Shown one piece after another: positions 2,848-18,096 of a stretch of DNA of 18,654 nucleotides (the first letter of the stretch is position 1; every line of letters begins with the position of its first letter). Source of the stretch: Candidatus Thorarchaeota archaeon (GTDB taxonomy: Archaea; Asgardarchaeota; Thorarchaeia; Thorarchaeales; Thorarchaeaceae). The stretch spans positions 1 through 18,654 of the forward strand of contig JAOUFI010000041.1 of the NCBI GenBank assembly GCA_029858305.1, in the 5' to 3' direction. The notes under the pieces were generated by a model. The model searched no databases and had not been told where the DNA came from. It saw nothing but the letters and a program-made list of their open reading frames with translations. A program made the translations under genes and the position numbers.

Positions 2848-3822
2848 CTATCTAGCCTCTTCCATGCCTGCTCGAAGTGATGCCGCAGTTCTGAAGAATA
2901 CTAGACTTATGGCAAGCATACCAAGTCCGAAGGCTATGCCAAAGACTGTTGGATAGATATAATCAGACATACTCCAACCCAGATAGACAAGGAGAAGACC
3001 TATGCCGCCGCCTACGACGAGGTGCAACAGACCACTAAACATAGTCATTGCTCTGAAAGCCAATTTTCTTGGAAATGTAAGGTGTACTATTCGACCAGAA
3101 GCGCCATCGACAAGAGCATTGTATGTTCTCACATTGTAGGTGTATTTGATATGCCATATTGGTATGCTGATGAGAAACACTGCGGGAGTTTGCAAATCGC
3201 TTTTCATCTCTTGGATAGTATCAACTTCTTTCAACGCTTCCTCGTAGAGGGCTTTTTTCATAATCGCAGATGCTTTCTTAATTGCTTCTCCCTGTTCCAT
3301 TTGAACAGGCATTGTTGTTCCGTATACATCAATGATCTTGTCCATGTTGAAGAATTCTTTTCGCCTTGTTGGAATCACATACTCCAGTAGAGCTTTGGGA
3401 GTATCAGGATTTGCAGGGATGAAAATGTCTCTCTCAAAATCCAGATGACCAGTTTCATTGATTTTGTTATAATGCAACGACCGGCGAGTGTCTTCGCCCT
3501 TGAAATCTGGTTTCTTCTGAATCCCCTGATAGTCAGCTCGAGCCTCCACTTCAACAACCCAAAATGGCCAGAAAATTATCTTACTCTCTTTAATCTCAGC
3601 ATTCTCTAATCCTTTGGGAGCACCAAGCTGTTTCATCGCCCAACTCAACATCTTTTCCCGTGCTTCGTCCAATCCGAATTGCAACTGCATCATGTAGTTT
3701 TCTTTTAGAATGGTACCAGTTCGGGTCTGAATCGTGGTGTTGCAATAGGAACATACAACGGTACTGCTTTGTGGTGGGATTTCAACCATCCCATCACAGT
3801 TGGGACATTTTATTCCACTCAA
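2848..3822 (-). CDS. Zinc-ribbon membrane protein (paralogue of 3819..4880)
   Basis: N-terminal CPNC...CSYC; FWPFW; IPIWHIKYTY..ALVDGASG; two C-terminal TM helices; 4-nt overlap with the upstream gene. Confidence 0.8.
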   Translation of the reverse strand: MSGIKCPNCDGMVEIPPQSSTVVCSYCNTTIQTRTGTILKENYMMQLQFGLDEAREKMLSWAMKQLGAPKGLENAEIKESKIIFWPFWVVEVEARADYQGIQKKPDFKGEDTRRSLHYNKINETGHLDFERDIFIPANPDTPKALLEYVIPTRRKEFFNMDKIIDVYGTTMPVQMEQGEAIKKASAIMKKALYEEALKEVDTIQEMKSDLQTPAVFLISIPIWHIKYTYNVRTYNALVDGASGRIVHLTFPRKLAFRAMTMFSGLLHLVVGGGIGLLLVYLGWSMSDYIYPTVFGIAFGLGMLAISLVFFRTAASLRAGMEEAR

Positions 3823-4880
3823 CGAATTTTACCTCCTAGGCGTCTGATTGTTCCATCCAAGGAGAACTCATTCCTACGCTCCTCACCATTCTTGTCGACT
3901 TGGACTTCATACTTGAGGGCACCACCAACAGTTATGATTGAACCGACCCAAAGAACGCAGGATAATATTACAGCAACAATTGGAATCATCCATAGGTCGC
4001 CAGCGTCGGAATCAGCATGAAGGAAGAATATGAGAATATAGGGAAGAATCTGAAAGAGCGCACTCGCTGATATTAGCAAGAAGAAACTAACAAGCCATTT
4101 CTTTAGCCTGTACCTTTTTGTGACAGGGAGTTCACCAAGGAGTACTTCACCTGTTGCACCAGATACGGCAATCCTGAAAGTTCCTTTTTGGTATGAATAA
4201 CGCACAAGCCAGTAAGGAGCATGTGTGTACACACTTGACTCTGGAGTGATTTCTAGATGATGATCAAGCAGCTTGTCCATCTTCTTTAGTAGTTCAGCAC
4301 GCTCGCGATCCTTCTTATTTCTCTGTCCACGTTTAATGGCATCCTCATCACTGATTTCAGAGTTGAGTACTGGAGCGGTATCTGTCATTTCAATTGTGAA
4401 GTCCTGAGTTTGCGAATCTTCAAAGGAAGAGAGAAGCTCTTCTATGCCAAAAGTAGCGGCGTGTCTCCGAGCTATGACCCACTCTATCATATGCCCAGAA
4501 TCGTGTTTCTCAAATCGGCGATATTTTCTAGAGTCGCCAGAACCTTCTGTCTTGTAACCGAAGTGATATGATTTGAATTTACCTTCCACGCGAAAAATAG
4601 GAATCCATTGTAGTCGCGGTTCTTCCAGCTCAATATTTCTAACTACACTACTACCTACCGTTTTCTTTGTTGCAAATTCCAACCAGTTCATCACCGTAGT
4701 CTTGATGGTATTCTTATCCAGTCTATTTGGAAGAATAAAGTGACGAATCTCTTTTCCCCCAATTGTAAATGTGTATCCACAGTAGGGACAAGTAGCAATA
4801 ACATCATCTGCACCAAGAGGATAAGGTGCATTACACTTCTCACAGCGGTACTGAGTAATTGTGGCTGGCTTATTCGTCAT
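3819..4880 (-). CDS. Zinc-ribbon membrane protein (paralogue of 2848..3822)
   Basis: N-terminal CEKC...CPYC; WIPIF; APYWLVRYSY..IAVSGATG..GELP; two C-terminal TM helices. Confidence 0.8.
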   Translation of the reverse strand: MTNKPATITQYRCEKCNAPYPLGADDVIATCPYCGYTFTIGGKEIRHFILPNRLDKNTIKTTVMNWLEFATKKTVGSSVVRNIELEEPRLQWIPIFRVEGKFKSYHFGYKTEGSGDSRKYRRFEKHDSGHMIEWVIARRHAATFGIEELLSSFEDSQTQDFTIEMTDTAPVLNSEISDEDAIKRGQRNKKDRERAELLKKMDKLLDHHLEITPESSVYTHAPYWLVRYSYQKGTFRIAVSGATGEVLLGELPVTKRYRLKKWLVSFFLLISASALFQILPYILIFFLHADSDAGDLWMIPIVAVILSCVLWVGSIITVGGALKYEVQVDKNGEERRNEFSLDGTIRRLGGKIR

Positions 4881-4987
4881 CAGGACTATCTCGCTATAAT
4901 TTCCTTAACAATGGTAAGTAGAAGTGCAAAAGGCGCGAAATATGCAAACTCACTACGACCACATAGCTCAATATCCACCTTCGGAAC

Positions 4988-5029
4988 TTATAAAAGATTC
5001 ACAGATTAGACAACAAAGTCAGTTGGAGG
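4988..5029 (+). promoter_or_regulatory. Putative TATA box (TTATAAAA, 4988-4995) and ribosome-binding site (GGAGG, 5025-5029) for the gene starting at 5038
   Basis: Archaeal TATA consensus about 45 nt upstream of the ATG; GGAGG 8 nt upstream. Confidence 0.55.
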
Positions 5030-5037
5030 CCCAAAAA

Positions 5038-5397
5038 ATGCAGATACCTACATTTCTCTTAAGAAAACTCTACATCAAGGGAAGTCTCGAAAATGTCGAC
5101 GATGGTTTCTCGTTCAAATTAAAGAACTCGATATCATCAGGTACAGCTATTAGTATTGAACCCATCAAAGTGAATGGGAATGAATACCCACTTGATGCCA
5201 CTATTATCAGCTCTGCTGATGGTCAAATCATTGGCAGCGAGATTTCTGAGGGAAATTCTTTCCCCATTAAAGTTGGTCTTGATATCTCGATCCATGTTAA
5301 GGGGGATGCTCTTCCAGAAGGAGAACATACCATAGACATTTCGCTGACCACAAAGGAAGTTGGAAAACTCGCCTTTGATGTTACTGATTCAATTTAG
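5038..5397 (+). CDS. Small beta-rich hypothetical protein, resembling the accessory N-terminal domain of some HMG-CoA reductases
   Basis: ATG at 5038 with GGAGG is preferred over the GTG at 4924. IPTFLLRKLYIKGSLEN..GFSFKLKN pattern; the family link is from memory only. Confidence 0.7.
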   Translation: MQIPTFLLRKLYIKGSLENVDDGFSFKLKNSISSGTAISIEPIKVNGNEYPLDATIISSADGQIIGSEISEGNSFPIKVGLDISIHVKGDALPEGEHTIDISLTTKEVGKLAFDVTDSI

Positions 5398-6647: not shown

Positions 6648-6810
6648 TTCGCAGACTCAACAATTTATGTGAGATAACATAATGTTGCGAAGAAGAAGAG
6701 CAATGTAAAATATGAAACTCTGTCCATATCTATTATAGCTATTGTCAATCCCACAAGTCTTATGACAGGAACAGAATACGGCCATACCCTAGGATATTGA
6801 GGTTCAGTAA

Positions 6811-7674
6811 ATGTTGCGTATCGGGTATATTAAGCAACTTCAGAAGAGATGGGGTCGAAGAGCACCAAAACAGATGCTTCGCATGATGCGACTACATCGA
6901 ACACCCTTTCAGACAATTCTTCAAAATATATTCGGAGCATTAGAAGATGGCGATGGACGATTTGCTTTTCCAACCATAGCTGCAATTGCTAGGATGCGAC
7001 CCGATCTTGTTCGTGAAATAGTGAACGAAGGACATGAAGTAGCAAGTCATGGATATAATCACGTAAGATATCCGACCCTCAGTGCGAATGATAGAGAAAG
7101 AGATTTTGCCCTCAGCCTTCAAACCTACAGGAAACTGGGTATCGAGATCAAGGGTTTCCGAGCTCCTTATGATAATTATACAGATGATATGCCAGCATTA
7201 CTTGAGAAGTACAAAATAGTTTGGGACGGTGGATTTGGTTACCGTACAGAATATAGAGAAAAGACTCATTTCTTCAACTTCAATCTCAATGATCGACCTT
7301 CGAGTGTCACATACATCCCGCTAAATATTTGGAGTGATGACTTGATGATTGATGTTCATGGAATGAGCCCTGAAGTGATATCAAAAACATTGAAGGAATC
7401 TATTACTCAAGCTTCTAGGACAGAGGGAGTCATTATGTTTGATCTTCATCCAATCAGAATGGGGCAACCGGAGTTTGTAGGATGCCTTCGAGATATTTGT
7501 GTTCATGCGAATAGCCTCGGTGCCTGGTGTACTACTCCAAGTGAAGCGGTCAATTATTGGAAAGCACATAAGAAATGGAAGGGAGACAGCTCTTTCTGTC
7601 TACTTCTAACTGGAGATATCGATAATTGGGTGTTCTCAGATTATCTCAGAAGAGTGATATGGAAAAGAAAATAG
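6811..7674 (+). CDS. Polysaccharide deacetylase (CE4/NodB-like)
   Basis: HEVASHGYNH metal-binding motif, GFRAPY and DLHP; motif-1-like LLTGDID at the C-terminus. Confidence 0.85.
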   Translation: MLRIGYIKQLQKRWGRRAPKQMLRMMRLHRTPFQTILQNIFGALEDGDGRFAFPTIAAIARMRPDLVREIVNEGHEVASHGYNHVRYPTLSANDRERDFALSLQTYRKLGIEIKGFRAPYDNYTDDMPALLEKYKIVWDGGFGYRTEYREKTHFFNFNLNDRPSSVTYIPLNIWSDDLMIDVHGMSPEVISKTLKESITQASRTEGVIMFDLHPIRMGQPEFVGCLRDICVHANSLGAWCTTPSEAVNYWKAHKKWKGDSSFCLLLTGDIDNWVFSDYLRRVIWKRK

Positions 7675-7695: not shown

Positions 7696-8142
7696 GTGGG
7701 TAAGTTTCTCGGGAGAATTCTTCGAATTCTGGCATGGATTGCACCTACCTATCAATTCAGAGCGAGTGTTTACAAAAAATGTGGCGTAAAAATTGGTAAG
7801 GGCATATACATGGGTTTCTTAGTCATAATTGACGGTGAATATCCTGAGTACATAGAGATTCAGGATTGGGCGAGTATAGGACCTGGAGTAAAAATTATGG
7901 CACATTCAGGTGGTAGTCCGTATCATCAGCATCATAAAATCTTCCATGAAGGACCCAAGAAGGTAGTAATTGGTAAAGGAGCATGGATTGCCACAGGTGC
8001 TATAGTTCTGCCAGGTGTAACAATTGGTGAGGGAGCTATAATAGCAGCAGGATCAGTGGTAAGTAAGGATATTCCACCATTTACTCTGTTTGCTGGAAAT
8101 CCAGCACGGATGATTCAAAAATTGGAACCCCAGAAAGACTAA
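7696..8142 (+). CDS. Left-handed beta-helix (hexapeptide repeat) O-acyltransferase
   Basis: VVIGKGAWIATGAIVLPGVTIGEGAIIAAGSVVSKDIPP...GNPAR, with the His in MAHS. Confidence 0.9.
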   Translation: MGKFLGRILRILAWIAPTYQFRASVYKKCGVKIGKGIYMGFLVIIDGEYPEYIEIQDWASIGPGVKIMAHSGGSPYHQHHKIFHEGPKKVVIGKGAWIATGAIVLPGVTIGEGAIIAAGSVVSKDIPPFTLFAGNPARMIQKLEPQKD

Positions 8143-8384
8143 GGAGAAAGTTTCTTCCTGAGAAGGGCTTTGAGATCACCTACAGACCAAATATCAACTA
8201 CCTCTTCATCTTCAAAGAATATTTCAAACTCATTTTCAAGCTCACTTACAATAATAAAATGGGCCATTGAATCCCAAGGTTCGAAATCTTTACGTTTTAG
8301 TTCATCACTAATTTCGTGTTTTTCCAAAAGAAGAACTTTTGATAAGATGTCAAGCAAGCGATCTTCGATTTCAGTCAATCTCAT
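8139..8384 (-). CDS. Acyl carrier protein (FkbH-associated type)
   Basis: 81 aa and acidic; WDSMAH carries the phosphopantetheine serine; ELENEFEI...SVGDL; ATGA overlap with fkbH. Confidence 0.9.
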   Translation of the reverse strand: MRLTEIEDRLLDILSKVLLLEKHEISDELKRKDFEPWDSMAHFIIVSELENEFEIFFEDEEVVDIWSVGDLKALLRKKLSP

Positions 8385-10216
8385 TCCTCTATTAGTTCAA
8401 TCCACTCTGGTACCTCAACTGTTTGATCTGCCAAGTTGAGAATCCAAGTTATGACATTATCATCAGATGGTGTATGCATTACAAATCCGTGACGTTTGTA
8501 GAAGTCTGCGGCAGGTGGATTCTTGTTAGTCGGTATATATTCACCGAGTACACGTTGAGCCTTTGATTTTCTCGCATCAGCCACTATTTTGGCAAGCATC
8601 GCAGTTTCAGCCGACCGTCCAATCACTCTGCAACTCATCAGGAAGGAGTCAATCAACCAATCACTAGTTTGCTTCCGAACGATAGCCACTCCAACTATTC
8701 CTTCATCGCCAAATCTATCCTTGACAGCCATGCTATATACAGCAGCTTCTTTTGACTGTCTGAAATTGTTTACTTCAGCATCCGTATAACGTTTGGTGGT
8801 CAGATTGAATTGATTTGTTTTACCTATCAGCTGAACTACTCGGGGGGCGTCAAAATCATTCACTTCATTCGCTGTGACTTTCAATTCAAGTGTTCGCAAG
8901 AAATCTTCAATTGAGGTCGCACTCTTCTCTAATTCGGACCTTTTTCTCTTACCGGCATACATCTCTCCGCGAGTTAGATCCTCTTTTGTGAGGGACAATA
9001 CATCGAACACCTTAAGGTTCTCAAGCATATCGCGATACAATCGCGGATTCTTTGGCATGTCGACAACTAGAACCTCGGGATGCACCTGTGATACCTGTGC
9101 TCTCTCAACAGGATTGTCATCTAAGAAGACCATACTGTCTAAGCCAATGTTGATTTCAGCGGCAAGTTCCTCAAGATTTACTACTTTGTTTTGCCAATTG
9201 ATTCTCAAAGCAGCAAAGTGCTCTTCCTTAAGAATTTGAAAGGGATGCTCACGAAATACTTTGACTACATCATCGTAATTGTTCTTACTACAAATTGCTA
9301 GAATGATACCTCGATTATATAGACTGAGCAGGGTCTTTTGAAACTCTACGTATTCGATTCCTGGAGCGGTATTTCCGAGCTTGATTCCCTCGAGACCATC
9401 CTCACCAATGATACCACCCCAGAGCGTGTTGTCTAGATCAAGCACAATGCACTTCTTTGTCTTGCCTCGCAAAGCCAAGATGTAACGAAGATATTCATCA
9501 ACTAGGATGGGAGTGAATTGCTCACTAAAGGGAACTGATCCACGATACCAAGTATTCCAATTAATTACTCGTGATTTGCCAAAATCACTTGCGATAGAAT
9601 CAAGATCTACAACAAAAGAACGGGATTTTTCTTGGAATCGTTGGGCAAGGGATGAATTCAATTCACCAAAGAATTGCAGGAAACCAAGTTTCTGTTTGTT
9701 ATCAACGATGCCAAAAGGAGTGAATGAGGGAATAATGAAATTATTCACCAGAATAAGAGCAGAAGTACTAGACTCAAGGGTGTCTACAAGTGAACAAATT
9801 CCCGCAATGACCTCTTTCTGGATATTCTTTCTTTCCTTTTCATTCATCCGAATGAATGAAGCAATAAACAGCTTATCAAGGATTGACCATGCATCAATTG
9901 AAAGGACTATCACATCAGGTGATAACTTGTAGAGGTTGGAATTCTTGTCCAATATTTCTTGACGATAAGTATTGAACCCTCCAACAAATGTTTTCACATT
10001 AAAACCAACAATTCTTGTTTTAATGTCAAGACATGCTGCAAGTGGTTCAAGTGTTGCGGAACCTATTACTGCAATACGAACTGCATTAGTATCATTCTTT
10101 GATACTTTAATACCGAGTGCCTCAATTTTCTTGTATGCACTCCAAAGATTCAGGTATGATGGATTTTCCCGTGCAGGTGCAAGAATATTGGAAATTCTCT
10201 CATCATCGCGGCTCAT
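8381..10216 (-). CDS. fkbH: FkbH-like HAD-IIIC glyceryl-transferase/phosphatase (N-terminal SGNH-like, HAD and GNAT-like domains)
   Basis: KCIVLDLDNTLWGG, CSKN, VFLDDNPVER, KTNQFNLTT, DRFGDEGIVG and FLMSCRV (the acyl-carrying Cys). Confidence 0.93.
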   Translation of the reverse strand: MSRDDERISNILAPARENPSYLNLWSAYKKIEALGIKVSKNDTNAVRIAVIGSATLEPLAACLDIKTRIVGFNVKTFVGGFNTYRQEILDKNSNLYKLSPDVIVLSIDAWSILDKLFIASFIRMNEKERKNIQKEVIAGICSLVDTLESSTSALILVNNFIIPSFTPFGIVDNKQKLGFLQFFGELNSSLAQRFQEKSRSFVVDLDSIASDFGKSRVINWNTWYRGSVPFSEQFTPILVDEYLRYILALRGKTKKCIVLDLDNTLWGGIIGEDGLEGIKLGNTAPGIEYVEFQKTLLSLYNRGIILAICSKNNYDDVVKVFREHPFQILKEEHFAALRINWQNKVVNLEELAAEINIGLDSMVFLDDNPVERAQVSQVHPEVLVVDMPKNPRLYRDMLENLKVFDVLSLTKEDLTRGEMYAGKRKRSELEKSATSIEDFLRTLELKVTANEVNDFDAPRVVQLIGKTNQFNLTTKRYTDAEVNNFRQSKEAAVYSMAVKDRFGDEGIVGVAIVRKQTSDWLIDSFLMSCRVIGRSAETAMLAKIVADARKSKAQRVLGEYIPTNKNPPAADFYKRHGFVMHTPSDDNVITWILNLADQTVEVPEWIELIEE

Positions 10217-10222
10217 GTTCAA

Positions 10223-10672
10223 TCACGTTCCTGGTAAAAGTTCTGAAACTTTCTCGTTTAGCAATTTCTGAAATACTATTGTATTAGCAGATTGGATTGA
10301 TGGAATTACACATGCGATTGCAACAGCATATTGCGAACTATGTGCGAGACTCAGAATTATTTCAATATCAGGCAAGTTGCTAATCGAAACATAGGGAGAA
10401 TCATTTTCATCGTGAAAAACATCAATGGATTTCATCGATAGCGATAGTCTTCTCGTCATCGCCTTGATTGTTGCTTCCTTTGCAGCAAATATTACTGCGA
10501 GATGCGGAAACGGATCTGAATATCTCGAGCAATAGTCCATCTCTTGTTCTGTAAAGATGCGATTGAAAAAGTTGGACTCAAGATCCAACTCTCTGAATCG
10601 TTTTATTTCGATAATGTCCACTCCAATACCGAATTTATCATCTTGTAGAAAATCTGCGTCCGCATTCAACAT
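10223..10672 (-). CDS. acpS: Holo-ACP synthase (AcpS-type 4'-phosphopantetheinyl transferase)
   Basis: GIGVDIIEIKRF, IFTEQE..YC, FAAKEATIKA and SLAHSSQYAVA. Confidence 0.9.
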   Translation of the reverse strand: MLNADADFLQDDKFGIGVDIIEIKRFRELDLESNFFNRIFTEQEMDYCSRYSDPFPHLAVIFAAKEATIKAMTRRLSLSMKSIDVFHDENDSPYVSISNLPDIEIILSLAHSSQYAVAIACVIPSIQSANTIVFQKLLNEKVSELLPGT

Positions 10673-10699
10673 GGTTCAATCTCTGCGAGGCTATGGGAC

Positions 10700-10710
10700 T
10701 CTTATAACGA
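10700..10710 (-). promoter_or_regulatory. Putative TATA box for acpS-fkbH-ACP
   Basis: TTATAA at 10702-10707, about 30 nt upstream of the acpS ATG. Confidence 0.4.
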
Positions 10711-10721
10711 TAATGGCAGGT

Positions 10722-12658: not shown

Positions 12659-13525
12659 CTACAGACGCTCGCCATTTCCAGGCATGTCCGCTTCATCCTC
12701 TGCATCGAACTGTGTCGGTCCGCCAATAGGCTGATGTTCGATTTCAGCTTCGCCTCTGGGCTTTCGCGGGATTGCTTTCCCATGCACCCAAATTGTATTT
12801 GGAGGAATCGTTGTGTCCTTAGGAACCACAGTATTGGCACCCACAATCACATTATCGCCGATATCAGCTCCAGGTAGAATTACAGCGTTTGCTCCCACAG
12901 TGACATTGTTGCCCAACCGCACTGTCTTGAGGTAAAGGCGTCTGCCTTCATATACATGACCGCTCAGAATTGCATCATAACCAAAGAAGCAATTGTCTCC
13001 AATAATTGTGCGTTCCGGATTGAATAAGCGTCCATTGCCGACTACAGTGTTTTTACCTATCTTTGTGCCAAAAGCTTGATGCCGGGGTTTTGTGTCAAGG
13101 AATACAGAGAAGAATCCGGCAAAATAGGGAAAGAGGATGTAATAGACCTCATAGTATTCGTAAAGCAACCAAGCTTCTGATTCAGCCTCATAATAACCAT
13201 CCTCAAGAAATGGTATTCCTCTCCGTGAGAGCTTAAGCATAGCAAGTAAGAATCCTAGAAACACTGCATAGCATGTTAAGCCAACAGGAACAAAGAGAAC
13301 AAAGACCCAGAAGTATTGGATTACAAGGGGATCAAAGGTTCCAGTGAGGAGTGGCAATGCCGCCTCATAGAGTGTAGCAAACGGAAAGCCAAGGCTGTTC
13401 AAGAAGTTTGTAAAATGCAGCAGAAAGAATCCGAAAAATAATATTGCAGGGATTGCTGCTATGGTCAGACTCACCATTATAGAGAGGACCATGTACATTG
13501 TATATCCAAGAGACCTTGCTTTCAT
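12659..13525 (-). CDS. Membrane-anchored hexapeptide-repeat (LbH) acyltransferase-like protein
   Basis: N-terminal hydrophobic helices, then IGKNTVVG / IGDNCFFG..SGH / LGNNVTVGANAVILPGADIGDNVIVGAN; acidic tail. Confidence 0.8.
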   Translation of the reverse strand: MKARSLGYTMYMVLSIMVSLTIAAIPAILFFGFFLLHFTNFLNSLGFPFATLYEAALPLLTGTFDPLVIQYFWVFVLFVPVGLTCYAVFLGFLLAMLKLSRRGIPFLEDGYYEAESEAWLLYEYYEVYYILFPYFAGFFSVFLDTKPRHQAFGTKIGKNTVVGNGRLFNPERTIIGDNCFFGYDAILSGHVYEGRRLYLKTVRLGNNVTVGANAVILPGADIGDNVIVGANTVVPKDTTIPPNTIWVHGKAIPRKPRGEAEIEHQPIGGPTQFDAEDEADMPGNGERL

Positions 13526-15136: not shown

Positions 15137-16201
15137 ATGAGTGTGAATGAGTCTATGCTTAACAACAAGGAATTTACAGATGCTCTCAATCTGTTTGGAT
15201 TTATTTCAGGAGAGCAACGAGAACCACGGCTCCTAACCATCCTCAGTGTGATACTGAAACTGCAAACGAATCCACCTATGCCTCTTACTTTCTCTCAAAT
15301 CTACGAAGAAATTGAGAGGGAAGATTCAAGCGCTAGACTGACAAAGGCATGGATTCACAAAGTGTTGAAGGCACTTATTGAAGTGCAACTGATTCGGGTA
15401 GATAGTCAAACAGCTCACCGCAAGAGGTACATTGCTGATGTGAATACTGTGATGGCAGGTCTTGAACAGATAAAGAGTCAAAGAGTCAAACAACTTGAGG
15501 CTCAGATACAAGAATCGAAAGATGTCCTTAAAGAAGTGAGCGCCCTCGACTGCGGCAAGCTGGCTCAGGAATTTGTAAAAGACATTACAGGGCAGCAGCA
15601 AGAGATTAGCTCTCGGGTCGTTAGAGGAGTTGACGCGCTGCATAGAGTTCTGAGGTATAATATGCTCGACTTGGCAAAAAAGGGAGATATCATACGGGCG
15701 ACTTTACTATGGGCTGGACCTTGGATTGATTCAACTGCAGGAGAACGAATATTGAGATTCTTTGAAGCAGCCGAGAGAGGTGTAGACATTCGCTATCTTA
15801 TCTCTACAGATATATTCAAACTAGAAAACGAACAAGAAAAAAGAACAAACCTGCAGGCGATGGTGGGCTTGTTTCAAAAATTAATCGAAATGAGGGCACG
15901 AGGCAAGAAGTTCGACGCCCGTTTCTATCTCGGACCAAAGACATACAATCAGATTTCGCTAAATAGAGATAATATGGCTTTGATCATTACAGAAAATCCT
16001 GTTACTGCCACATGGATTACTAGGCGATTCAATCCAGATCTTATTGACAACGCCGTGAGATCGTTTGATAGAGACTGGAAGCGGTCCAAATCAATCTTCG
16101 ATCTCACACCGCAGGAGATGGCTGCTATGGGAGGAGTCCCCGGGGGAGTAATGAGTCAATTAGTAAATTCTAAAAGAAAGGAAGAAATAATTCATGAATG
16201 A
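15137..16201 (+). CDS. TrmB-like regulator paralogue 1 (wHTH, coiled coil, PLD-like effector domain)
   Basis: PLTFSQIYEEI...LTKAWIHKVLKALIEVQLIRVD..RKRY wHTH; AAERGVDIRYLI; NPDLIDNAVRSFDRDW. Confidence 0.75.
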   Translation: MSVNESMLNNKEFTDALNLFGFISGEQREPRLLTILSVILKLQTNPPMPLTFSQIYEEIEREDSSARLTKAWIHKVLKALIEVQLIRVDSQTAHRKRYIADVNTVMAGLEQIKSQRVKQLEAQIQESKDVLKEVSALDCGKLAQEFVKDITGQQQEISSRVVRGVDALHRVLRYNMLDLAKKGDIIRATLLWAGPWIDSTAGERILRFFEAAERGVDIRYLISTDIFKLENEQEKRTNLQAMVGLFQKLIEMRARGKKFDARFYLGPKTYNQISLNRDNMALIITENPVTATWITRRFNPDLIDNAVRSFDRDWKRSKSIFDLTPQEMAAMGGVPGGVMSQLVNSKRKEEIIHE

Positions 16202-16224
16202 AGGGAGAATAGAGGGCAGCACTG

Positions 16225-17127
16225 ATGCAAGAGACATGGGATGTATTAGAAACTGTTGGTTTTGATATGAAGAGGAAGGACATGATAGTCCTTGGCGCAC
16301 TTCTCAAATCACAGAGTGAGCCAAAAGCGTTCGTTGATTTTGAGTCTTTGAGAGAGCAACTTGCAAAAGATGAAGGAGGAAAAAAGGGGAAGGACTCACT
16401 CATCTATCGTAGTCTCTCATGGCTTGAACAGGCTGGATTGCTTCAGGTTGACAGAAGCGGGCACAAGCATGGGTACAATTCAAATTTAGGTATGATGCAG
16501 AAGGTCTTGAAACAGCGAATAAAAACAAAGTTGTCGGAATTTGCGAAAGAGAGCAAAGCTCTTGATGTTGATATTCATGTGATATCAGAAATCAATGCAA
16601 ATTCACTTGCAGCAGATGTGGTAGCACTGGCAGTGGGAACACAACTAGCAGAAAGACCTTTTTTCGCCCAAGGATGGCAGAACATAGTGAAGCTCCTAGA
16701 CGATAAAGTCTATAGAAACCTCAAGAAAAACGATATCATCAGATTCACATTGGAATGGTACGACCGCCCAAAGGAATTGGAAGAACCAAGAGTGGACATA
16801 ATCGAGAAAATACTAAAGGAGGGGGTAGAAGTACGAGGATTGGAACATCGAAAACTGGGGGGCAAAAGTTACCAGCGATTTGCTCAGCTATTTAGGATTT
16901 TCATTCAGAAAGGCTACAAGGTTGGCTTACGGGTGCGCTTGAGGGAGGATTCGACGTATCAATTTGTAGGACGCAGTTCTGAAGGAATTCTACTCATTGT
17001 TTCAGAGAATCCACTATCTGGAACATGGCTGCCGAGAAGTGCTAATCCAGAGCTGGTTGATAATGCAATTCAAAGCTTTGACAGGGACTATCTTGAAGGA
17101 TCTGAAATCTCTTCATTTGGAGAGTGA
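16225..17127 (+). CDS. TrmB-like regulator paralogue 2
   Basis: DSLIYRSLSWLEQAGLLQVD..KHGY wHTH; KEGVEVRGL; NPELVDNAIQSFDRDY. The start codon is uncertain. Confidence 0.75.
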   Translation: MQETWDVLETVGFDMKRKDMIVLGALLKSQSEPKAFVDFESLREQLAKDEGGKKGKDSLIYRSLSWLEQAGLLQVDRSGHKHGYNSNLGMMQKVLKQRIKTKLSEFAKESKALDVDIHVISEINANSLAADVVALAVGTQLAERPFFAQGWQNIVKLLDDKVYRNLKKNDIIRFTLEWYDRPKELEEPRVDIIEKILKEGVEVRGLEHRKLGGKSYQRFAQLFRIFIQKGYKVGLRVRLREDSTYQFVGRSSEGILLIVSENPLSGTWLPRSANPELVDNAIQSFDRDYLEGSEISSFGE

Positions 17128-17133
17128 CATTGA

Positions 17134-18096
17134 ATGACAGGGAGAAAATCTATTGAAATCCTGACAAAGCTCGGAGTGGATATGAATTCAAGTCAGATGA
17201 TGGTATTCAAAGCAATCATCACTGCGGCAAATGGCCTCTCAAGATCTGTCACCTATAAAGAAATAGTTGATGCAATAAAGAAGATTGCTGATAAGAAATA
17301 TACCAAGGCTTATGTGTATCGACAATTAAGCAGCTTGGAGAAAGAGGGATTCATCGTTGTAGATGCAATCCAGCATCCAAAACGATATAGTATTTCAGAA
17401 TCTACACTATCTTCTGCCTTGGCAAGAAAGAGTCAACATACTCTCTCGGAACTCAAGTCAAAGCATCAAGCTATCACCAGACAGCTGAAACTCCTAGAAA
17501 CTGTGGATCCCGAGGAATTGGCAATCACTGCCTACAACACTCTTGTCGGAATCTCTCCCGGTAGTGAGTCAACGATCATTGAAGGGATTGAGAACGTGAG
17601 GAGCACGGTGATTAGAGAGTTTGCAGATGGAGCCAAGCCAGGAGACTATGTTAGAGTTTTAGCTCCAGCAAGTACAATCGCAGAGGGCCTTGGGCCAGGT
17701 GGAATGACAGAACTTCGTATTATACAAGGAGCATCAAAGGGTGTAAAGGTACATGGAATGCTAACGCCTTTTCAGCAGCAGGAGATGAGCACCGAGCTGA
17801 TTGCGGGATTCCTCAAGACGCTCTCAGGACCCTTTTTTGAGGCAGTGAATACAGGAAATGTTAAGGTCAAACTCGCGAGGGAGCCTGTACAGACATATAG
17901 AATGGTCAGTCTCAATAATGATAAAATGCTCCTTTATCTTACTCATGCAAAAGAATCGGATGTTGCAGCCTTGATTCATAGAGGAAAAAATGCTGGACTC
18001 ATAGATGATGCAGTTTCAACCTTTGATAGACTTTGGGAGAATGGCGTGGATATTGCTGAGATTCTAGCAAAGATGATGAATTCTGGCAAGATGTGA
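17134..18096 (+). CDS. TrmB-like regulator paralogue 3
   Basis: VTYKEIVD...YTKAYVYRQLSSLEKEGFIVVD..PKRY wHTH; IIEGIENVRS; KGVKVHGML; NAGLIDDAVSTFDRLW. Confidence 0.78.
   Translation: MTGRKSIEILTKLGVDMNSSQMMVFKAIITAANGLSRSVTYKEIVDAIKKIADKKYTKAYVYRQLSSLEKEGFIVVDAIQHPKRYSISESTLSSALARKSQHTLSELKSKHQAITRQLKLLETVDPEELAITAYNTLVGISPGSESTIIEGIENVRSTVIREFADGAKPGDYVRVLAPASTIAEGLGPGGMTELRIIQGASKGVKVHGMLTPFQQQEMSTELIAGFLKTLSGPFFEAVNTGNVKVKLAREPVQTYRMVSLNNDKMLLYLTHAKESDVAALIHRGKNAGLIDDAVSTFDRLWENGVDIAEILAKMMNSGKM

Follow-up and report, generated by a model that had tools for sequence, protein, structure and literature searches.

The window analysed here is an entire contig of 18,654 bases (G000:C16) from a 3.04-Mb genome bin of a Candidatus Thorarchaeota archaeon (completeness, 88.9%; contamination, 2.8%). 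It carries three consecutive minus-strand open reading frames (ORFs) that encode, AcpS first, an AcpS-type 4'-phosphopantetheinyl transferase (PPTase), an FkbH-family loader, and an acyl carrier protein (ACP). An earlier note on this DNA had described the three genes as a tightly coupled, self-contained carrier-protein pathway of an Asgard archaeon, and had assigned the glyceryl acceptor step to other means or to genes elsewhere. Here we found that the acpS-fkbH-ACP trio is the ACP-handling half of a conserved five-gene cassette, the other two genes of which encode a CE4-like protein and a hexapeptide-repeat acyltransferase. These two genes form a convergent operon that overlaps the 3' end of the ACP gene by 4 nucleotides (nt) (Table 1).

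The coupling of the trio was as described: 6 nt separate the stop codon of acpS (10225-10223) from the ATG of fkbH (10216), and an ATGA (8384-8381) is common to the fkbH stop and the ACP start. An alternative TTG start of fkbH at 10222 would give a product of 613 aa. Ahead of the AcpS start by ca. 35 nt lies TTATAAGAG (10707-10699), and TTATAAG is kept in all 12 loci of the genus and in six of seven loci from other genera of the family. The proposal that the trio has its own TATA box stands as far as the conserved TATA-like element is concerned, and a promoter role is what its sequence suggests. On the other strand, the element CACAAGTCTTATGA is a possible promoter for the CE4/acyltransferase operon; CTTATGA or CCTTTTGAAAG-like strings were seen by eye at the same distance from the CE4 start in most loci of the family.

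Table 1 Features of the five-gene cassette and its candidate upstream elements in the window.
Feature	Position	Strand	Basis or remark
AcpS-type 4'-phosphopantetheinyl transferase, 149 aa	10223..10672	-	PF01648, TIGR00556
FkbH-family loader, 611 aa	8381..10216	-	FkbH_N, HAD-IIIC phosphatase, and C-terminal GNAT-like domain with SCRV cysteine
Divergent acyl carrier protein, 81 aa, pI 4.5, W37-D38-S39	8139..8384	-	Orthologue profile against solved ACPs
Hexapeptide-repeat (left-handed beta-helix) acyltransferase, 148 aa	7696..8142	+	PF00132; candidate glyceryl transferase
CE4/NodB-fold deacetylase-like protein, 287 aa, non-canonical motif 1	6811..7674	+	PF01522
TATA-like element CATTATCGTTATAAGAG	10699..10715	-	ca. 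35 nt 5' of AcpS start; conserved
Element CACAAGTCTTATGA	6752..6765	+	ca. 45-60 nt 5' of CE4 gene start; conserved

AcpS matched PF01648 at 67.1 bits (cut-off, 25) and TIGR00556 at 65.4 (cut-off, 45.35), and its score of 59.4 against the equivalog model TIGR00516 was just below the cut-off of 59.8. With one ACPS domain, a length within ca. 120-150 aa, and a score above the family cut-off, the protein belongs to the group I PPTases. G17, D19, E66, and K70 were invariant in all 23 orthologues. FkbH scored 321.8 bits with TIGR01686 (cut-off, 146.65), 78.4 with TIGR01681 (35.75), and 52.9 with PF21211, the FkbH_N model (27), and its residues 479-578 gave a weak match to PF00583 (GNAT). The DxDxT motif corresponds to D260-L-D262-N-T264, in which D260, D262, and T264 were invariant among the 27 aligned sequences; the downstream HAD motifs S310-K311 and D366-D367 and the SCRV motif (S528-C529-R530-V531) were likewise intact and invariant in all 27. 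C529 is the residue that we take to carry the glyceryl group. The closest solved structure was that of BF1531 from Bacteroides fragilis (PDB 3slr; residues 45-410, E 2.4e-53), which has FkbH_N and HAD domains as in the cassette FkbH and whose solved chain is without the C-terminal Cys domain. Both curated models and invariant motifs therefore bear out the identification of a PPTase and of an FkbH with intact DxDxT and SCRV motifs. Going by the FkbH family, from which the substrate is taken, the protein would make glyceryl-S-ACP from 1,3-bisphosphoglycerate.

The ACP is divergent enough that Pfam gives it no family at all: PF00550 matched neither this protein nor any other in the search of the G000 genome, and the NCBIfam ACP models stayed below cut-off, the best at 26.9 against 66. 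On the other hand, a profile of 12 orthologues matched solved ACPs (2lml, E 2.3e-6; 2ehs, E 2.4e-6), and in the profile alignment the WDS serine was in register with the (W)DS serine of solved carriers. W37-D38-S39 was invariant in 26 of 26 sequences. These results confirm that the protein is an ACP bearing a WDS motif. AcpS was the sole PF01648 match in the G000 genome search, and the ACP was the only match there of its orthologue profile (A4); the sole PPTase and the sole carrier protein found in G000 are those of the trio.

The acyltransferase matched PF00132 at 46.2 bits (cut-off, 27), and its nearest solved relatives were galactoside/maltose O-acetyltransferases (E 3e-18). H70, invariant in 26 of 26 sequences, aligned with the T-H-P histidine of 3ftt, a position presumably occupied by the catalytic histidine of these O-acetyltransferases. 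The protein is without their N-terminal region of ca. 60-70 residues (the match begins at residue 74 of 3ftt and residue 30 of the query), and in its place residues 1-29 carry a basic segment that is conserved, GxxxGRxxRxxAW. The whole protein is basic, with a pI of 9.6 compared with 4.5 for the ACP. The CE4-like protein scored 48.7 bits with PF01522 (cut-off, 23.1). CE4 motifs 2 (HxxxH), 3 (RxPY), and 5 (LxH) were present as H80/H84, R117-A-P-Y120, and D211-L-H213, which were invariant in 25 of 25 sequences, and the C-terminal LLTGDIDN (265-272) was also invariant.

Comparison of loci showed that the five genes behave as one unit. A natural deletion has removed all five from two congeners, G001 (97% complete) and G013, in which the gene u328 lies directly beside that for an XPB-like helicase. 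In G015, what is left of AcpS (40 residues) directly adjoins what is left of CE4, forming a deletion scar, and in G004 and G011 the cassette is split across contig ends. We collected 27 loci encoding the FkbH of the window's type (type 1), namely the window, 11 congener loci, nine loci from eight other genera of the family, four loci of family f18, and two of family f20. All five genes lay within ca. 5 kb in every one of them. In f18 and f20, which are families of the same phylum, the order is CE4>AcpS>FkbH>ACP>, with the acyltransferase on the opposite strand and unrelated flanks. Since the CE4-like and acyltransferase genes are gained, lost, and rearranged along with the trio, they belong to its unit and are the obvious candidates for the acceptor step. 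Synteny across Asgard genomes thus argues against a self-contained trio, which was accompanied by these two co-inherited genes at all 27 loci, and against the view that the acceptor step necessarily lies elsewhere or proceeds by other means. We also considered u328, a hexapeptide-repeat protein (Hexa288), geranylgeranyl reductase, and the XPB-like helicase as cassette members and rejected them; all four remain in the cassette-free congeners.

Co-inheritance was also seen in a single set of 400 genomes from the phylum. Type-1 FkbH was found in 56 genomes and an acyltransferase orthologue in 56, with both in 54 of the 58 carriers; in the four discordant genomes (G004, G011, G356, and G125), the gene lay at a contig end. 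Of the 56, 52 also encode a small AcpS that stands alone. Scanning metagenomes with the acyltransferase as the seed gave 80 loci, 63 of which had at least 56% identity. Among these 63, the CE4 gene was found in 57, at least one trio gene in 51, and all five genes in 32. Twelve were without the trio, and in nine of the twelve the contig ends within 500 nt. At one congener locus (L013:866-1546, G010:C106), the acyltransferase match was limited to residues 1-91 within a longer open frame, which may reflect a frameshift or a divergent C-terminus in the G010 assembly.

A frequent sixth gene encodes a VOC/Glyoxalase_4-fold protein of 130-138 aa (e.g. L017:7102-7491 and L054:10928-11332). Among complete congener loci, 8 of 11 have it within the cassette or next to it, and so do 3 of 4 loci of f18, both of f20, and 37 of the 63 from metagenomes. 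The gene is missing from the window, where a 164-nt gap is found at 6648-6810, from L022, and from all nine loci of the family's other genera.

The Pfam scan of the window identified an archaea-specific editing domain of threonyl-tRNA synthetase and a gelsolin repeat protein, as well as geranylgeranyl reductase and the XPB-like helicase. The complete 18-kb gene order recurs in the 11 congener loci, on contigs of up to 121 kb, and the block recurs in the nine loci from the eight other genera, two of which are on contigs of 1.55 and 3.16 Mb. Because of this synteny with congeners and other genera, the contig is archaeal, with no chimera at the cassette locus. The Asgard-archaeal origin given in the earlier note is upheld by the marker genes and by the gene order, which contradict a bacterial or chimeric contig.

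No ketosynthase, condensation, or MBOAT domain was detected by Pfam among 20 ORFs of the window, as had been stated before, and these ORFs include no FabH-like, ketosynthase, dehydrogenase, or O-methyltransferase partner for FkbH and ACP. We extended the search to five genomes of the genus. Dlt-like carrier systems need an MBOAT partner, and MBOAT (PF03062) was found in none of the five, though the model matched in four control genomes. The ketosynthase model PF00109 gave 17 matches in the five genomes, all of them short and partial (model positions ca. 143-228 of 252) in ORFs of 390-421 aa, and it also matched in four of four archaeal control genomes. We rejected these matches as true ketosynthases and read them as probably thiolase-like. 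A 474-aa acyltransferase of the condensation/PapA_C type (PapA5-like) is encoded beside a TetR regulator at G000:C17:10399-11820 (L074). This protein was rejected as a conserved partner; it is absent from four congeners, its contig is without clear archaeal markers, and it may represent a recent transfer or bin contamination.

Neighbouring genes elsewhere point to glycan synthesis. AglB/STT3 adjoins the cassette in all four f18 loci, divergently and ca. 600 nt from the cassette start. Among the 63 metagenome loci, 12 have AglB within 8 kb, arranged in at least three ways. Since one such contig (L128) carries eIF2-alpha, the metagenome contigs with AglB and sugar genes are archaeal. At two of the 12 loci with AglB (L100 and L114), the cassette is found among genes for a nucleotidyltransferase, a UDP-sugar dehydrogenase, a GFO/IDH/MocA oxidoreductase, and a DegT aminotransferase; glycosyltransferases, an Asn-synthase-like protein, and another hexapeptide transferase are encoded there as well. 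We take these sugar genes to resemble the 2,3-diamino-uronic acid sugar pathways of bacterial O-antigens and methanogen N-glycans. A search of G000 for the 2,3-diamino-uronic-acid pathway gave scattered, moderate matches only. The context favours a sugar of the N-glycan pathway as the acceptor over a lipid or a secondary metabolite.

The best reading of these data, to which we give an even chance, is that glyceryl-S-ACP serves as the acyl donor for tailoring a glycan sugar. AcpS would turn apo-ACP into holo-ACP at Ser39. FkbH would take D-1,3-bisphosphoglycerate, and its HAD domain would strip the 3-phosphate; the glyceryl group would be held on Cys529 of FkbH and then handed to holo-ACP. With glyceryl-S-ACP, and not acetyl-CoA, as its donor, the basic beta-helix acyltransferase would attach the acyl group to a hydroxyl or an amino group on a sugar. 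This would most likely be an amino sugar linked to a nucleotide or a lipid and bound for an AglB-dependent N-glycan. The CE4-like enzyme would first free the position by removal of an acetyl group, or would edit the same sugar otherwise. We infer the use of the ACP thioester by the acyltransferase, the order of the steps, and the acceptor; the switch of the cassette acyltransferase to glyceryl-S-ACP is suggested by co-inheritance.

Several observations weigh against this scheme. A second type of FkbH, with ca. 30% identity, occurs in G024, a genome that is 99% complete and gave no PPTase match; because of this, FkbH-like proteins are not always ACP loaders. The nearest solved relatives of the acyltransferase are acetyl-CoA-dependent O-acetyltransferases. 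The CE4-like protein lacks the Asp-Asp of motif 1, a catalytic base and metal ligand in CE4 enzymes: when the profiles are aligned, its H29-R-T-P-F33 falls opposite the DDGPF of 7y51. Because the canonical Asp-Asp is missing, the deacetylase activity of this protein is not assured. One idea is that the C-terminal LTGDID stands in for motif 1 through a circularly permuted fold. The cassette is not beside AglB in the window's own family; AglB lies on contig C50. Finally, ten metagenome loci (group B) carry a sister acyltransferase with 50-55% identity, and trio genes were found in none of the ten. A matching CE4 gene is present in nine of them, and three (L140, L141, and L144) have a flank of 3-8 kb on each side with no FkbH, ACP, or AcpS. 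The existence of these ACP-less sister pairs indicates that the acyltransferase/CE4 pair is older than its link to the carrier protein and that it can work without a carrier, presumably via a CoA thioester. The N-terminal segment of the acyltransferase and the C-terminal motif of the CE4 protein are common to the cassette and the ACP-less sisters; we had considered the basic segment as an ACP docking site and dropped this candidate, as the sister acyltransferases retain it. A divergent RidA/L-PSP gene lies beside the sister pair in two of the three well-flanked loci.

Group B, which keeps the pair without the trio and shares the same N-terminal helix and CE4 motif, also fits an explanation in which the cassette holds two modules of a shared pathway with no hand-off between them: the pair would acetylate and deacetylate a glycan sugar via acetyl-CoA, the donor of the acyltransferase's nearest solved relatives, as the ACP-less sisters presumably do, and the glyceryl group would be delivered by something else, such as the GNAT-like domain of FkbH, to which the weak GNAT match in its C-terminal region corresponds, or by an unlinked enzyme. 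We regard this explanation as unlikely. No other transferase is conserved with the trio over the 27 genome loci, the phyletic match between the acyltransferase clade and FkbH is nearly exact in the phylum (54 of 58 carriers), and the deletion in G015 took parts of both halves in one event. A lipid acceptor, with the cassette tailoring the head groups of archaeal membrane lipids or glycolipids, is improbable. In its favour is the best NCBIfam match of the acyltransferase, heptaprenylglyceryl phosphate O-acetyltransferase, although this reached 75.5 bits against a cut-off of 300. Part of its appeal also lies in the surroundings of the cassette in the window's family: a geranylgeranyl reductase, a protein with the HMG-CoA-reductase N-domain, and a hexapeptide protein with a membrane anchor are encoded nearby. 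These neighbours, however, persist when the cassette is deleted; at the loci of f18, f20, and the metagenomes they are absent, and AglB and nucleotide-sugar genes take their place.

We attach an equally low probability to the transfer of a group other than glyceroyl, which would follow if FkbH loaded or yielded a non-glycerate acyl group that the VOC protein may isomerise or epimerise. The substrate of FkbH comes from family membership alone, and the VOC gene accompanies many cassette versions (8 of 11 congener and 37 of 63 metagenome loci); however, this gene is not essential, being missing from the window, L022, and nine other-genus loci, and FkbH retains every one of its HAD and Cys motifs. 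By far the least probable explanation is that the trio is a starter or extender module of secondary metabolism (tetronate, methoxymalonyl-ACP, or non-ribosomal peptide synthetase [NRPS] type), or that it stems from bacterial contamination or a chimera. The FkbH family is mostly bacterial, and plasmid homologues with ca. 32% identity lie beside genes for KAS III, an E2-like acyltransferase, and polyketide synthase (PKS). Against this, the cassette is in synteny with archaeal markers at 11 congener and nine other-genus loci, on contigs of up to 3.2 Mb; neither window nor cassette holds a true ketosynthase or a FabH-like, dehydrogenase, or O-methyltransferase partner; and G000 alone, on a contig other than the window, has the condensation-domain protein, which four congeners lack. 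The plasmid homologues themselves were of the polyketide/tetronate type, and no cassette of the five-gene kind was found among them.

FkbH loaders with stand-alone ACPs are described for polyketide, tetronate, and NRPS pathways in PMC7489565 and PMC8949500. The cassette resembles FkbH/OzmB-type systems in that its loader belongs to the same TIGR01686 family, has the DxDxT and Cys motifs, and adjoins a dedicated small ACP. It differs from them in its partners, a beta-helix acyltransferase and a CE4-like protein, and in its archaeal host, and its FkbH has only ca. 30% identity with plasmid-borne bacterial examples. The LpxC and LpxD steps of lipid A synthesis offer a parallel: the N-acetyl group of an amino sugar is first removed, and a left-handed beta-helix acyltransferase then adds a new acyl group from acyl-ACP. 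This serves as an analogy only; the fold of LpxC differs from CE4, the chains handled by LpxC/LpxD are fatty acyl, and the cassette acyltransferase is closer to galactoside/maltose O-acetyltransferases.

A related beta-helix acyltransferase is encoded in G160 (L157; G160:C3:554000-572000) together with an Sfp-type PPTase, MaoC dehydratase, ACP, AMP-ligase, Fe-ADH, LuxE, and LuxC. That this relative adjoins another PPTase/ACP/AMP-ligase module speaks for the proposed scheme. The wbe genes of Vibrio cholerae encode an ACP, an AMP-ligase, an Fe-ADH, a LuxC/E-like protein, and a hexapeptide transferase, and we assume that the G160 cluster resembles this tetronate gene set of serotype O1. In V. cholerae O1, according to PMC3441752, the amino groups of perosamine carry tetronate, which is made by VC0248-52. 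The cassette would share with this module (VC0248-VC0252, wbeK-O) the delivery of a small hydroxy-acid, built on or held by a dedicated carrier, to an amino sugar of a surface glycan, and differs from it in that the acyl group is activated by FkbH and not by an AMP-ligase. A layout like that of V. cholerae was seen in G160 but not in G000. In the literature searched by title and abstract, supplementary tables aside, no archaeal cassette combining FkbH, ACP, and AcpS with a beta-helix acyltransferase and a CE4 protein was described.

The general statement that archaea are without ACP-based chemistry holds for most of them, ACP and ACP synthase being reported as lacking in most archaea in PMC3533463, and needs a qualifier here: a PPTase domain was found in 123 of the 400 genomes of the phylum, in many cases within giant FAS/PKS-type proteins of 3,200-3,800 aa (FAS, fatty acid synthase). 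Giant single-chain proteins of this type with a terminal PPTase domain occur in many genomes of other Asgard families, e.g. in 28 of 31 for f5; the one at L075:1516-11628 (G069:C9) has an NMO-type ER, KS, AT, a second KS-like region, ACP, KR, DH, and ACPS. No such giant protein is present in G000. The second type of FkbH, ca. 610 aa in length with ca. 30% identity, is always followed by a protein of 296-319 aa (L025, G006:C47; L024, G028:C38; L064, G110:C52). Its neighbours are either FkbM methyltransferases or a group of GT2 glycosyltransferases, a sulfotransferase, and a nucleotidyltransferase, and no ACP was seen at these loci.

Several features flank the cassette in the window. Three tandem paralogues of 354, 300, and 320 aa with mutual identities of 21-27% are encoded at 15137-18096 (+), and a tandem pair of 324 and 353 aa at 2848-4880 (-). 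Neither set matched a Pfam or NCBIfam family, and both are kept across the loci of the window's family. Hexa288 (12659-13525, -) is a 288-aa protein with an N-terminal hydrophobic region, as judged by eye, and a hexapeptide-repeat domain. At 4924-5397 (+), a protein of 157 aa consists of an HMG-CoA-reductase N-terminal domain on its own. The latter two are retained in the cassette-free congeners.

Archaea are generally regarded as making hardly any use of acyl carrier proteins. In the phylum closest to eukaryotes, a complete holo-ACP system appears to be kept for one narrow job in about one-seventh of the sampled genomes (56 of 400), and the cassette is vertically inherited at one chromosomal site across a whole family. 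FkbH loaders are therefore not confined to polyketide and non-ribosomal peptide chemistry. We propose, tentatively, that archaea including Asgard members use a bacterial-type carrier system as a private acyl donor for N-glycosylation, without fatty acid or polyketide synthesis, and that some of their glycoproteins bear glyceroyl amino sugars. If true, this would be an ACP-dependent modification of protein-linked glycans, of which the literature searched describes none. A glyceroylated glycan sugar as the product would be a new building block of archaeal surface glycans, would allow the ACP-dependent acylation of sugars to be studied in a simple in vitro system, and would provide a mass tag of +46 Da relative to acetyl for Asgard glycoproteomes.

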